Assembly: GCF_054482525.1 (NCBI RefSeq)
Contig: NZ_CM137006.1
DNA length: 64,000 nucleotides
Reading direction: 5' to 3' (one strand)
The translations under genes were made by a program, and so were the position numbers. Shown in pieces: positions 2,771 through 16,765 of the stretch. Below the pieces are notes generated by a model. The model searched no databases and had not been told where the DNA came from. It saw nothing but the letters and a program-made list of their open reading frames with translations. Position 1 is the first letter of the stretch; each line of letters starts with the position of its first letter.

Positions 2771-5700
2771 ATGATTCCACAGATTTCCCAGGCACCCGGC
2801 GTCGTTCAACTGGTGCTTAATTTTTTGCAAGAGCTGGAGCAACAGGGGTTTACCGGCGATACGGCGACAAGTTATGCCGATCGTCTGACAATGTCGACCG
2901 ACAACAGTATTTACCAACTTCTCCCCGATGCGGTGGTATTTCCGCGTTCAACCGCAGATGTGGCGCTGATCGCCCGTCTTGCCGCGCAGGAACGCTATTC
3001 ATCGCTGATCTTTACCCCCCGCGGCGGCGGCACCGGCACTAACGGTCAGGCGCTCAACCAGGGGATTATTGTTGATATGTCCCGCCATATGAACCGCATC
3101 ATCGAAATTAACCCTGAAGAGGGCTGGGTGCGCGTTGAGGCCGGGGTGATAAAAGACCAACTCAATCAGTACCTGAAACCGTTCGGCTACTTTTTTGCGC
3201 CGGAGCTTTCGACCAGCAACCGGGCAACGCTCGGCGGGATGATCAATACCGATGCGTCCGGTCAGGGATCGCTGGTCTATGGCAAAACGTCAGATCACGT
3301 ACTTGGCCTACGTGCGGTATTGTTGGGGGGCGATATTCTCGATACGCAACCTTTACCCGTCGAGCTGGCGGAAACGCTGGGTAAATCCAATACCACAATC
3401 GGGCGAATTTATAACACGGTTTATCAACGTTGCCGTCAGCAACGCCAGTTAATCATCGACAACTTCCCCAAACTTAACCGCTTTCTTACCGGTTACGATC
3501 TGCGTCATGTCTTTAACGATGAGATGACCGAGTTCGACCTGACGCGCATTCTGACGGGTTCAGAAGGGACGCTGGCCTTTATTACCGAAGCGCGGCTGGA
3601 TATTACGCCCTTGCCTAAAGTGCGCCGTCTGGTGAACGTCAAATATGACTCTTTTGACTCCGCGCTGCGTAACGCGCCGTTTATGGTTGAGGCGCGGGCG
3701 CTTTCGGTAGAGACGGTGGACTCAAAAGTGCTGAATTTGGCGCGGGAAGATATTGTCTGGCATTCCGTCAGCGAGTTGATTACCGATGTGCCTGACAAAG
3801 AAATGCTCGGGCTGAACATTGTGGAATTTGCTGGTGATGATGAGACGCTGATTGATGAGCGGGTAAATGCACTCTGTGCGCGGTTGGATGAACTGATTGC
3901 CAGCCAACAGGCAGGTGTGATTGGCTGGCAGGTGTGCCGCGAACTGGCGGGTGTTGAACGTATCTATGCGATGCGCAAAAAAGCTGTTGGTCTGCTTGGC
4001 AATGCCAAAGGTGCCGCTAAGCCAATTCCGTTTGCTGAGGATACCTGCGTACCGCCGGAACATCTGGCAGATTATATTGCTGAATTTCGCGCGCTGCTCG
4101 ACAGCCACGGCTTAAGCTACGGTATGTTCGGTCACGTCGACGCAGGTGTCTTGCACGTCCGTCCGGCACTGGATATGTGCGATCCGCAACAAGAGATTTT
4201 GATGAAGCAAATCTCTGATGATGTAGTGGCGCTTACCGCGAAATACGGTGGTTTGTTGTGGGGCGAACACGGCAAAGGTTTTCGCGCCGAATACAGCCCG
4301 GCGTTTTTTGGTGAGGAACTTTTTGCAGAACTGCGTAAAGTGAAAGCGGCATTTGACCCGCATAACCGACTCAACCCTGGGAAGATTTGCCCGCCAGAAG
4401 GTCTCGATGCGCCGATGATGAAAGTGGACGCGGTGAAGCGCGGTACATTCGATCGACAGATCCCCATTGCGGTACGCCAGCAGTGGCGTGGTGCAATGGA
4501 GTGTAACGGCAACGGTTTATGCTTCAACTTTGATGCCCGCAGTCCGATGTGCCCGTCGATGAAGATTACCCAGAACCGGATTCATTCACCGAAAGGGCGC
4601 GCAACGCTGGTGCGTGAATGGCTGCGTTTGTTGGCAGATCGCGGCGTTGACCCACTCAAACTGGAACAAGAGCTGCCTGAATCAGGCGTCAGTTTGCGGA
4701 CGTTAATTGCCCGCACGCGCAATAGCTGGCATGCGAATAAAGGCGAATATGACTTCTCCCACGAAGTCAAAGAGGCGATGTCTGGTTGCCTGGCCTGTAA
4801 AGCGTGTTCGACACAGTGCCCAATCAAAATTGACGTGCCTGAGTTTCGTTCTCGCTTTCTGCAACTCTATCACACCCGTTATTTGCGCCCGCTGCGCGAC
4901 CACCTCGTCGCCACGGTCGAGAGCTACGCACCGCTGATGGCACGCGCGCCGAAAACCTTTAACTTCTTCATTAACCAGCCGCTGGTGCGCAAACTCTCGG
5001 AAAAACATATCGGCATGGTTGATTTGCCGCTGCTGTCGGTCCCCTCGCTACAACAACAAATGGTGGGGCATCGCTCGGCAAACATGACGCTGGAACAGCT
5101 TGAAGCTCTCAGTGCAGAGCAGAAAGCGCGCACGGTGCTGGTGGTGCAGGACCCCTTTACCAGCTATTACGATGCGCAAGTGGTGGCGGATTTTGTCCGT
5201 CTGGTCGAAAAATTAGGTTTCCAGCCGGTGTTACTGCCATTTTCGCCAAATGGCAAAGCCCAGCATATCAAAGGCTTTCTTAATCGTTTTGCGAAGACGG
5301 CGAAAAAGACGGCGGATTTCCTCAACCGTGTGGCGAAGCTGGGGATGCCAATGGTGGGCGTCGATCCGGCGCTGGTACTTTGTTATCGCGATGAATATAA
5401 ACTGGCGCTGGGCGAGGAACGTGGCGAGTTTAACGTCTTACTGGCGAATGAATGGCTGGCAAGCGCACTTGACTCACAGCCAGTGGCTACAGTCAGCGGT
5501 GAATCATGGTATTTCTTTGGTCACTGTACCGAAGTTACCGCTTTGCCGGGCGCGCCAGCACAATGGGCCGCGATATTTGCCCGTTTTGGCGCGAAACTGG
5601 AAAATGTCAGCGTGGGTTGCTGCGGCATGGCAGGGACTTACGGACATGAAGCGAAAAACCATAAAAATTCGCTCGGGATCTATGAGTTATCCTGGCATCA

Positions 5701-5827
5701 GGCGATGCAGCGACTGCCGCGTAATCGCTGTCTGGCGACCGGATATTCCTGCCGTAGCCAGGTAAAACGGGTCGAAGGCACGGGGGTACGCCATCCTGTG
5801 CAGGCTTTACTGGAGATTATTAAATGA
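2771..5827 (+). CDS. ydiJ: FAD-linked oxidoreductase with C-terminal Fe-S cysteine clusters (D-2-hydroxyglutarate dehydrogenase-like), 1018 aa
   Basis: 1018-aa ORF with FAD-binding PCMH-type N-terminal region and CxxCxxC motifs; recognised as YdiJ. Confidence 0.9.
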   Translation: MIPQISQAPGVVQLVLNFLQELEQQGFTGDTATSYADRLTMSTDNSIYQLLPDAVVFPRSTADVALIARLAAQERYSSLIFTPRGGGTGTNGQALNQGIIVDMSRHMNRIIEINPEEGWVRVEAGVIKDQLNQYLKPFGYFFAPELSTSNRATLGGMINTDASGQGSLVYGKTSDHVLGLRAVLLGGDILDTQPLPVELAETLGKSNTTIGRIYNTVYQRCRQQRQLIIDNFPKLNRFLTGYDLRHVFNDEMTEFDLTRILTGSEGTLAFITEARLDITPLPKVRRLVNVKYDSFDSALRNAPFMVEARALSVETVDSKVLNLAREDIVWHSVSELITDVPDKEMLGLNIVEFAGDDETLIDERVNALCARLDELIASQQAGVIGWQVCRELAGVERIYAMRKKAVGLLGNAKGAAKPIPFAEDTCVPPEHLADYIAEFRALLDSHGLSYGMFGHVDAGVLHVRPALDMCDPQQEILMKQISDDVVALTAKYGGLLWGEHGKGFRAEYSPAFFGEELFAELRKVKAAFDPHNRLNPGKICPPEGLDAPMMKVDAVKRGTFDRQIPIAVRQQWRGAMECNGNGLCFNFDARSPMCPSMKITQNRIHSPKGRATLVREWLRLLADRGVDPLKLEQELPESGVSLRTLIARTRNSWHANKGEYDFSHEVKEAMSGCLACKACSTQCPIKIDVPEFRSRFLQLYHTRYLRPLRDHLVATVESYAPLMARAPKTFNFFINQPLVRKLSEKHIGMVDLPLLSVPSLQQQMVGHRSANMTLEQLEALSAEQKARTVLVVQDPFTSYYDAQVVADFVRLVEKLGFQPVLLPFSPNGKAQHIKGFLNRFAKTAKKTADFLNRVAKLGMPMVGVDPALVLCYRDEYKLALGEERGEFNVLLANEWLASALDSQPVATVSGESWYFFGHCTEVTALPGAPAQWAAIFARFGAKLENVSVGCCGMAGTYGHEAKNHKNSLGIYELSWHQAMQRLPRNRCLATGYSCRSQVKRVEGTGVRHPVQALLEIIK

Positions 5828-6234
5828 TATGGAAACGAAAAATCACCCTGGAAGCACTGAATGCTATGGGTGAAGGAAACATGGTGGGGTTGCTGGATAT
5901 TCGCTTTGAACATATTGGTGATGACACCCTTGAAGCGACAATGCCAGTAGACTCGCGGACAAAGCAGCCTTTCGGGTTGCTGCATGGAGGAGCATCCGTG
6001 GTACTGGCCGAAAGTATCGGTTCCGTTGCCGGTTATTTATGTACCGAAGGTGAGCAAAAAGTGGTTGGTCTGGAAATCAATGCTAACCACGTCCGCTCGG
6101 CACGAGAAGGGCGGGTGCGCGGCGTATGCAAACCGTTGCATCTCGGTTCGCGTCACCAGGTCTGGCAGATTGAAATCTTCGATGAGAAAGGGCGTTTGTG
6201 CTGTTCGTCACGATTGACGACCGCGATTTTGTGA
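5824..6234 (+). CDS. menI: 1,4-dihydroxy-2-naphthoyl-CoA thioesterase (hotdog fold), 136 aa
   Basis: 136-aa ORF recognised as MenI/YdiI; start overlaps the ydiJ stop by 4 nt (ATGA). Confidence 0.9.
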   Translation: MIWKRKITLEALNAMGEGNMVGLLDIRFEHIGDDTLEATMPVDSRTKQPFGLLHGGASVVLAESIGSVAGYLCTEGEQKVVGLEINANHVRSAREGRVRGVCKPLHLGSRHQVWQIEIFDEKGRLCCSSRLTTAIL

Positions 6235-6333: not shown

Positions 6334-6522
6334 ATGTCTACTCAACTTGATCCCACCCAGCTGGCCATTGAATTTTTACGCCGTGACCAGAGCAATCTTT
6401 CACCTGCCCAATATCTCAAACGTCTGAAACAACTAGAACTTGAATTTGCTGACCTGCTTACTCTCTCTTCTGCTGAATTAAAAGAAGAAATCTACTTTGC
6501 CTGGCGTCTGGGCGTGCATTGA
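6334..6522 (+). CDS. ydiH: Small uncharacterized protein YdiH, 62 aa
   Basis: Internal ATG at 6334 preceded by GAGG; yields MSTQLDPTQLAIEFL..., 62 aa, matching the K-12 YdiH length; the 89-aa ORF call is probably an over-extension. Confidence 0.75.
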   Translation: MSTQLDPTQLAIEFLRRDQSNLSPAQYLKRLKQLELEFADLLTLSSAELKEEIYFAWRLGVH

Positions 6523-6721
6523 TCCTGACTTAATGCCGCAATTTCGCCAAATCGACCTGGATTAACCTCCGTCCAGGTTCGATGACCTTCTTAATACTGC
6601 TTATCTACCCGCCTGATATTGTTCAAAAATAATACTAATCGCAGTTTGTGTTAAAACGGCGGGTTAGCTTTATGAGATTATTCTTATCGCCCCTTCAAGA
6701 GCTAAGCCACTGAGAGTGCCG

Positions 6722-6790
6722 GAGATAAGCGCCGGATGGGGTAGAAACCCTTAAGCCTGTGTCGCACAGACTTAAGGGTTTTCTTATTTC
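6722..6790 (+). ncRNA. rydB: Probable RydB small RNA; boundaries approximate
   Basis: K-12 places rydB between ydiH and sufA on the ydiH strand; long stem-loop 6746-6780 (AACCCTTAAG...CTTAAGGGTT) followed by TTTTCTTATTTC; the 5' end is not determinable by eye. Confidence 0.4.
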
Positions 6791-6885
6791 TGAACGCTGC
6801 ACTTTTTTACCTATCTCTTAAATAGTCATTTTCAATACAACTTTTTCTTTTTCATCACAGCCTTAATGCTCCTTAGATAATAATC

Positions 6886-6901
6886 ATTATCTAACAATGA
6901 G
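6886..6901. promoter_or_regulatory. AT-rich palindromic Fur-box-like element GATAATAATCATTATC in the distal suf control region
   Basis: Read directly; resembles the Fur consensus GATAATGATAATCATTATC; about 170 bp upstream of the sufA ATG, where IHF and OxyR sites are reported. Confidence 0.35.
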
Positions 6902-7011
6902 ATACCTAATTCTTAGCGTGCCTGTTAACCCACACATCAGGGTCTATGCTTATTAAAAGCAGGAAAAAAGCATGTTTTACGGTAAAGCCCCTGCGTTTGC
7001 TGGGTTGAACT

Positions 7012-7026
7012 GATAATCATTATCAC
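7012..7026. promoter_or_regulatory. Fur box overlapping the sufA core promoter (GATAATCATTATCAC)
   Basis: Fur-consensus-like sequence about 45 bp upstream of the sufA ATG; suf is known to be Fur-repressed with the site overlapping the promoter. Confidence 0.6.
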
Positions 7027-7070
7027 TAACATGCTGTTATACGCTGAAAGCGATGAAGTGAGGTAAATCG

Positions 7071-7439
7071 ATGGACATGCATTCAGGAACCTTTAATCCA
7101 CAGGATTTTGCCTGGCAGGGCTTAACGCTGACACCCGCAGCCGCTGTCCACATCCGCGAGCTGGTGGCAAAGCAGCCGGGTATGGTCGGCGTGCGCTTAG
7201 GCGTGAAGCAAACGGGCTGCGCGGGCTTTGGCTATGTGCTCGACAGTGTTAGCGAGCCGGACAAAGACGATCTGCTGTTTGAACACGACGGCGCGAAGCT
7301 GTTTGTCCCGCTGCAAGCGATGCCGTTTATTGATGGCACGGAAGTCGATTTCGTTCGTGAAGGACTTAATCAGATATTTAAATTTCACAACCCTAAAGCC
7401 CAGAATGAATGTGGCTGTGGCGAAAGCTTTGGGGTATAG
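7071..7439 (+). CDS. sufA: Fe-S cluster assembly A-type carrier SufA, 122 aa
   Basis: 122-aa ORF with C-terminal CGCGESF motif; GAGG RBS; first gene of the suf operon. Confidence 0.95.
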
Positions 7440-16525: not shown

Positions 16526-16765
16526 CCATTCAGGATGAGGCGGTAAGCTTCATCCTGATATTCTTGCTTCAGTTGCGCTCCAGTTAATCACTCTAAATAA
16601 CAACTGCTGAAATTATACGAATTTCGGTATGTATTTTAATTTATAGCGATAATGTTATTTTTATTTTCTGCAATGAACGTCACAAATAATTGTCGCTTAA
16701 GTTAAATTTATTTCAAATGATAATAAATATCAGTTCACTTATAATTTCTTGCTTTGTGATTTTAA

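Follow-up and report, generated by a model that had tools for sequence, protein, structure and literature searches.

A Fur-box-like palindrome upstream of the Escherichia coli suf promoter is probably part of the IHF site ORE-II

Layout of the suf control region

The window of this study, by which we mean the whole 64 kb stretch of DNA that was analysed, is E. coli chromosome and carries the plus-strand gene order ydiJ-menI-ydiH-rydB-sufABCDSE, as read from its open reading frames and the K-12 annotation. Positions 6500-7200 showed 100 % identity to strains such as PCN033 and matched 5421 of 5426 complete E. coli genomes; in the RefSeq annotation of the identical DNA, the genes beneath these matches are sufA and ydiH. 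The first gene of sufABCDSE, sufA, occupies 7071-7439 on the plus strand (open reading frame list and RefSeq annotation), with its ATG at 7071. The small RNA rydB was located at 6689-6749 on the plus strand (Rfam RF00118, 81.6 bits, E = 2.6e-19), and aligning its K-12 annotation (b4430) to the window gave about 6677-6744. A hairpin with a T-rich tail at 6744-6790 (plus strand) ends the ydiH/rydB transcription unit and forms the upstream boundary of the suf control region. RNA folding revealed a long stem, AAACCCUUAAG...CUUAAGGGUUU, followed by UCUUAUUU; a simple terminator scan made no call at this hairpin because the T run is interrupted.

The sufA promoter has its -35 hexamer, TTGAAC, at 7005-7010 and its -10 hexamer, TAACAT, at 7027-7032. 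Positions relative to +1 were derived from the Fur-blind PsufA variant used in the field, in which -26ATA-24 is changed to TAT (the Fur* mutation). Since the proximal Fur box contains a single ATA, at 7013-7015, +1 falls at 7039, 32 nt 5' of the sufA ATG. Three anchors agree on this scale, namely Fur* at -26 to -24, the IscR motif at -55 to -30 and the conserved blocks described below. The DNA is nearly identical to that of K-12, with 2 SNPs in about 400 bp, and the rydB-sufA intergenic region differs from K-12 at two positions only, T/C at 6884 and A/C at 6964. Two Fur-box-like palindromes lie in this region: a proximal one within the promoter, and a distal one, GATAATAATCATTATC, at 6876-6891 (-163 to -148 from +1). 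The distal palindrome is the subject of this study.

Reviews divide the suf control region into ORE-I, which is bound by OxyR, ORE-II, which is bound by IHF, and ORE-III, which is bound by IscR and Fur; they place OxyR far upstream and describe IHF at ORE-II as required for OxyR to reach the promoter. In tables derived from RegulonDB, likewise, sufABCDSE is activated by IHF and repressed by Fur. The control region has the textbook E. coli layout, and its promoter architecture (OxyR, IHF, IscR and Fur) has been mapped since 2003-2008, so that the biology is already known. The OxyR site ORE-I, at 6800-6842, was read from the sequence as ...CTAT-N7-ATAG-N7-CAAT, with CTAT/ATAG quarter sites 7 apart, and its block was highly conserved in 39-80 Enterobacteriaceae. 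A Fur-like match of 9.6 bits, TTAAATAGTCATTTTCAAT, lies inside the OxyR site at 6818-6836 (centre 6827); it has no listed ChIP-exo peak and is probably a by-product of the ATAG repeats.

The IscR type-2 activator site of ORE-III lies at 6984-7009 on the plus strand, where it overlaps the -35 TTGAAC. It has 0 mismatches to AWARCCCYTSNGTTTGMNGKKKTKWA, the type-2 motif that reportedly goes back to Giel et al. in 2006, and nowhere else in the window does this motif match with 3 or fewer mismatches. An IscR site at the distal palindrome was considered and rejected, as the type-2 motif matched 6984-7009 alone and the distal element is without CC/GG half-site elements; the suggestion in the preliminary description that the distal element could be an IscR-region site was thus not upheld. 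Lee, Yeo and Roe are said to have found in 2004 that IHF at ORE-II bends the DNA so that far-upstream OxyR activates sufA. The intervals reportedly given in that work, -236 to -197, -156 to -127 and -56 to -35, are ones that we take to correspond to window positions 6803-6842 (ORE-I), 6883-6912 (ORE-II, the IHF footprint) and 6983-7004 (ORE-III). These intervals coincide with the CTAT/ATAG block, with an IHF-type block at 6881-6910 and with the sole IscR motif at 6984-7009.

The proximal Fur operator and Fur occupancy in vivo

The proximal Fur operator, the 7-1-7 sequence TGATAATCATTATCA, occupies 7011-7025 (-28 to -14 from +1), between the -35 and -10 hexamers. A sequence search of the window found the string GATAATCATTATCAC at 7012-7026, just where the preliminary description had placed it, and the accompanying claim of a Fur operator overlapping the promoter was confirmed by consensus, promoter overlap, conservation and ChIP-exo. 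The site, TGATAAT-C-ATTATCA, is a perfect 7-1-7 inverted repeat with 0 mismatches.

Similarity to Fur sites was quantified with a 19-bp symmetric matrix built from 22 K-12 Fur sites, the centres of which were taken from Table 4 of Chen et al. (2007) and the sequences from NC_000913.3; all centres fell on 7-1-7 motifs. The matrix reproduces published scores closely, with 20.4 vs 21.3 bits for sufA and 19.5 vs 19.9 bits for ydhY. At 20.4 bits the proximal box was the best match in the 64 kb window, and Chen et al. (2007) place the sufA Fur site (21.3 bits) at -53 from the ATG. Second in the window was TGATAATAAATATCA at 16718-16732 (19.5 bits), which is the Fur cluster upstream of ydhY predicted by Chen et al. 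(2007) at 19.9 bits; the ChIP-exo lists of KO11FL and 042 contain peaks assigned to the ydhY operon.

Conservation was assessed in a comparison set of 80 sufA loci from Enterobacteriaceae species. The proximal box was kept in 79 of these, with scores of 17.6-26.1 bits at -42 to -56 from the ATG. The exception, locus L057, had no site in the expected interval, its best site (26.6 bits) lying further upstream. Taken together, the box at 7011-7025 is the single functional, already known Fur operator of this promoter. Fe2+-Fur bound there would block both RNA polymerase and the overlapping IscR activator site, because the operator sits between the -35 and -10 hexamers.

Occupancy in vivo was taken from Gao et al. 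(2023; PMC10164565), who performed Fur ChIP-exo in nine strains. The peaks of their Dataset 2 were placed on the window via the sufA start of each strain, and six strains could be mapped in this way. Among strains with C at position 6884, the centre of the distal element, MG1655 and W each had a Fur peak at 6996-7008, Crooks had one at 7002-7014, and KO11FL had two, at 6995-7007 and 7031-7043. The two strains with T at 6884 also had paired peaks, at 6996-7008 and 7029-7041 in 042 and at 6994-7006 and 7028-7040 in CFT073. The two peaks of each pair lie symmetrically around 7018, the midpoint of the proximal box, as the exonuclease borders of a single bound complex would. At the distal element the lists contain no Fur ChIP-exo peak for any of the six mapped strains, including the T-allele strains CFT073 and 042; since these are peak lists rather than raw coverage, weak occupancy could escape them. 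The next listed Fur peak lies at ydiE, about 25 kb off, in every list.

The fur comparison in Dataset 3 of the same study (Gao et al., 2023; PMC10164565) contained a separate signal in the neighbouring genes, with ydiI (menI) and ydiJ (window positions 2771-6234) changing in the direction opposite to suf. In MG1655 the log2 changes were about -1.3 and -1.5; those in W were about -1.1, and those in W3110 were weaker. The signal has no connection with the distal box and may reflect an indirect influence, of the RyhB type, on an operon for an Fe-S enzyme.

The distal palindrome and the conserved IHF-type block

The preliminary description had reported the distal string correctly, but at 6886-6901, which is 10 positions away from its actual place at 6876-6891. 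It was right to place the element between the rydB terminator hairpin (about 6744-6790) and the sufA promoter, whereas its spacing of about 125 bp from the proximal box has to be revised to 136 bp start to start, or 133 bp centre to centre. Nor is the distal element the more symmetric of the two, as had been thought: in the 7-1-7 register (TAATAAT-C-ATTATCT) it has 2 mismatches, compared to 0 in the proximal box. Its perfect 6-bp arms are separated by a 4-bp spacer (GATAAT-AATC-ATTATC), as opposed to the 1-bp spacing of the Fur 7-1-7 motif. Within the window, the exact 16-mer and its near matches were confined to this place, with 3 matches vs 0.43 expected.

With T at 6884, as in the window, the distal element scored 13.6 bits in the Fur matrix and ranked third in the 64 kb, after the proximal box and the ydhY site. 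This exceeds the 10-bit cut-off of Chen et al. (2007). When the training sites were themselves scored by leave-one-out they had a mean of 21.2 bits (sd 4.1, minimum 9.3), so that the distal element falls below 21 of the 22 sites, tonB (9.3 bits) being the only one lower. Dinucleotide shuffles of the 211-bp control region (6790-7000) reached at least 13.6 bits in 0.6 % of cases and at least 10.8 bits in 2.5 %, and the background held 25 matches of at least 10.7 bits in 139 kb. The resemblance to a Fur box is real and modestly exceeds that expected from composition, yet it falls short of the usual level of a Fur operator.

Compared to known Fur boxes, the element matches 13 of 15 positions of the 7-1-7 motif (TGATAATNATTATCA) and 14 of 19 of the classical 19-bp box (GATAATGATAATCATTATC), and it is closely similar to the operators of ryhB and fhuA (TAATAATCATTCTC), TAATAATCATT being common to all. 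In contrast to Fur operators, it is off-promoter, is not kept across genera, is polymorphic at a consensus position and is without a listed ChIP-exo peak. At -163 to -148 it lies away from the -35 and -10 of the repressed promoter, and the promoter-like match that does occur there is weak and non-significant.

The right side of the palindrome runs into a conserved IHF-type block, ORE-II, at 6881-6910 on the plus strand, which takes in the right 11 bp of the palindrome and whose core, TAACAATGAGATA, is at 6892-6904 (-147 to -135). IHF sites were judged by consensus and orthology and not by a matrix. In 39 of the 80 species the perfect IHF consensus, WATCAANNNNTTR, was found on the plus strand with a constant offset of exactly -120 relative to the proximal box centre. 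A perfect consensus is expected by chance only about 4 times per 64 kb; this low rate, together with the fixed offset in 39 species, indicates a conserved site. The E. coli core agrees with the consensus at 11 of 13 positions (2 mismatches) and aligns to the perfect cores of the 39 species, so that it qualifies as a putative IHF core by orthology and not on the E. coli sequence by itself. Directly 5' of the core, on the same strand, is an A/T-rich tract, TTAGATAATAATCATTATC, at 6873-6891 (79 % A+T), and an equivalent tract, AAAT.CATTATT, is kept in other genera. IHF sites usually have such a tract right next to the core on its 5' side.

The two halves of the palindrome differ in their conservation. 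Across the 80 loci, the left GATAA and the spacer at 6846-6875 were almost devoid of information outside Escherichia. Among six Escherichia species, the variable columns numbered 3 of 9 in the left half of the palindrome, 1 of 7 in its right half and 1 of 13 in the core of the IHF site; the left-half variants were GATAAG in E. albertii and GGTAAT in E. whittamii. The Fur score at the distal offset reached 10 bits or more in Escherichia alone and was mostly 0-10 bits elsewhere among the 80 loci. One locus of the set (L050, Enterobacteriaceae bacterium UBA5654) had a 17.2-bit Fur-like sequence, AATATTATTTATTATCAAT, at -129 from its proximal box, directly over a perfect IHF core, an overlap that shows how readily the DNA of an IHF site scores as Fur-like.

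We therefore consider it likely, with good confidence, that the distal palindrome forms the A/T-rich arm on the 5' side of ORE-II, the known IHF site, and is not a second Fur operator; its resemblance to a Fur box appears incidental. The IHF site ORE-II of the K-12 sufA promoter lies at the same locus, the distal palindrome abutting the orthologous core and overlapping the conserved block. The right half, CATTATC, would be constrained as part of the IHF block, and the left half, GATAAT, would be a freely variable flank, specific to Escherichia, by which a Fur-like inverted repeat is completed by coincidence. IHF is proposed to bend the DNA at ORE-II (core 6892-6904), and oxidised OxyR at about 6800-6842, about 60-100 bp further upstream, would thereby come into contact with promoter-bound polymerase. 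The DNA looping, and the occupancy of precisely this block by IHF, we infer or take from the literature. Among the options raised in the preliminary description, it is that of an IHF-region site merely resembling a Fur box that holds, given the conserved IHF block and the lack of a listed Fur peak. The description had named absence of Fur occupancy combined with correspondence to the IHF site as grounds for giving up a distal Fur site, and this is essentially what was found.

Allele variation and alternative readings

The central base of the distal element, 6884, is polymorphic within E. coli: T was present in 2139 and C in 3268 of 5426 complete genomes, and less than 0.3 % of the genomes matched neither the T nor the C 41-mer. 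G is rare and was seen in the GTDB E. coli representative (L002, SCPM-O-B-8794), which also has many differences from the window in rydB and the spacer. The Fur score follows the allele, at 13.6 bits for T, 10.8 for C and 7.3 for G. The window strain carries T, as do CFT073, 042 and Sakai, and K-12 carries C, as seen in MG1655 and likewise in W, KO11FL and Crooks; the strains checked suggest that the allele follows phylogroup. T is probably ancestral, because it is also found in E. albertii and E. whittamii. Such allele frequencies at a consensus position speak against selection for Fur binding. The polymorphism separates K-12-like strains from many pathogenic E. coli in the IHF region of suf. 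The ORE-II footprints were done on K-12, with C at 6884, in contrast to the T of the window strain, a difference to be considered whenever K-12 footprints are applied to other strains.

Evidence against the IHF-arm reading comes from the Fur score itself, which lies above the 10-bit cut-off and is reached in only 0.6 % of shuffles, and from the similarity to the ryhB and fhuA operators; Fur could well bind the element in vitro. This evidence would fit an auxiliary, low-affinity Fur site, at which Fur, when iron is replete, would dampen activation by OxyR and IHF through competition with IHF or cooperation with the proximal operator, the alleles tuning this by lineage. Both the T (13.6 bits) and the C (10.8 bits) allele pass the cut-off of Chen et al. 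(2007), shuffles of the local sequence give a probability of 0.006, the overlap with the IHF block makes competition sterically plausible, and Fur-likeness peaks in Escherichia, where the IHF core is degenerate. There is also a precedent in fhuF, where a single promoter has high- and low-affinity Fur-protected regions (Chen et al., 2007); as at suf, the weaker cluster, fhuF2, lies upstream of the strong one in the same intergenic region. However, fhuF2 was protected in DNase I footprinting, whereas the suf distal element is without a listed in vivo ChIP-exo peak in the six strains, those with the T allele included, even though peaks 34 bp apart were resolved. Its position at -163 to -148 is off the promoter, compared to the 83 % of predicted Fur clusters that overlap one (Chen et al., 2007). 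A common polymorphism at a consensus position and the substitutions in GATAAT among Escherichia species also speak against it, as does the use in the field of a 3-bp change in the proximal box as a Fur-blind promoter. An occupied auxiliary Fur site, another option of the preliminary description, is accordingly not borne out by the ChIP-exo lists, and we regard it as improbable. In A/T-rich regulatory DNA, scoring 13-14 bits on the matrix does not suffice for calling a Fur site.

Quite improbable, too, is the reading that the whole palindrome is a chance product of an A/T-rich spacer and has no bound protein. The unconserved left half and the polymorphic centre would be expected of such a product, and A/T-rich DNA does throw up Fur-like strings, as the background count of 25 in 139 kb illustrates. 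Yet conservation is strong in the right half and in the 20 bp next to it, the IHF consensus recurs at a fixed offset in 39 species, and the dependence of suf induction on IHF is documented.

The combination of a degenerate IHF core (2 mismatches) with Fur-likeness above that of other genera could reflect a functional shift in Escherichia. The element could be a composite IHF/Fur element in this genus, drifted or selected, at which Fur under iron excess competes with IHF and gates the OxyR-dependent induction of suf, tuned by the T, C or G allele. In such a scheme the tested B2/D/E-type strains would have the T version and K-12, W, KO11FL and Crooks the C version, G being rare. We consider this composite very unlikely.

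A still less likely alternative, and one that we hold to be highly improbable, is that GATAAT at 6876-6881 is the -10 of a weak upstream suf promoter repressed through the Fur-like sequence. The promoter scan did find ATCACA-N16-GATAAT at 6854-6881 (9 of 12 positions), and most Fur clusters overlap promoter-like sequences (Chen et al., 2007). Against this, 2 promoter-like sites vs 1.0 expected in shuffles is non-significant, the -35 would fall in the least conserved part of the control region (6846-6875), no Fur peak is listed, and a second start site goes unmentioned in the literature consulted. Control of rydB by the distal element, also entertained in the preliminary description, has next to no probability and was abandoned, as proximity speaks for it (about 130 bp from the rydB 3' end) but the element lies 3' of rydB on the same strand, past its terminator hairpin, an operator of the rydB promoter would have to be upstream of about 6677, and several Citrobacter and Salmonella species without rydB-like sequence here keep the IHF block.

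Our comparison also revealed a very conserved block, CAGGGTCTATGCTTATTAAAAG, at 6938-6959 (-101 to -80), which had high information in all 80 loci. It is among the most conserved of the control region and lies outside ORE-I, ORE-II and ORE-III. The suf literature consulted assigns no factor to this block; NsrR, which RegulonDB lists for suf, might bind to it.
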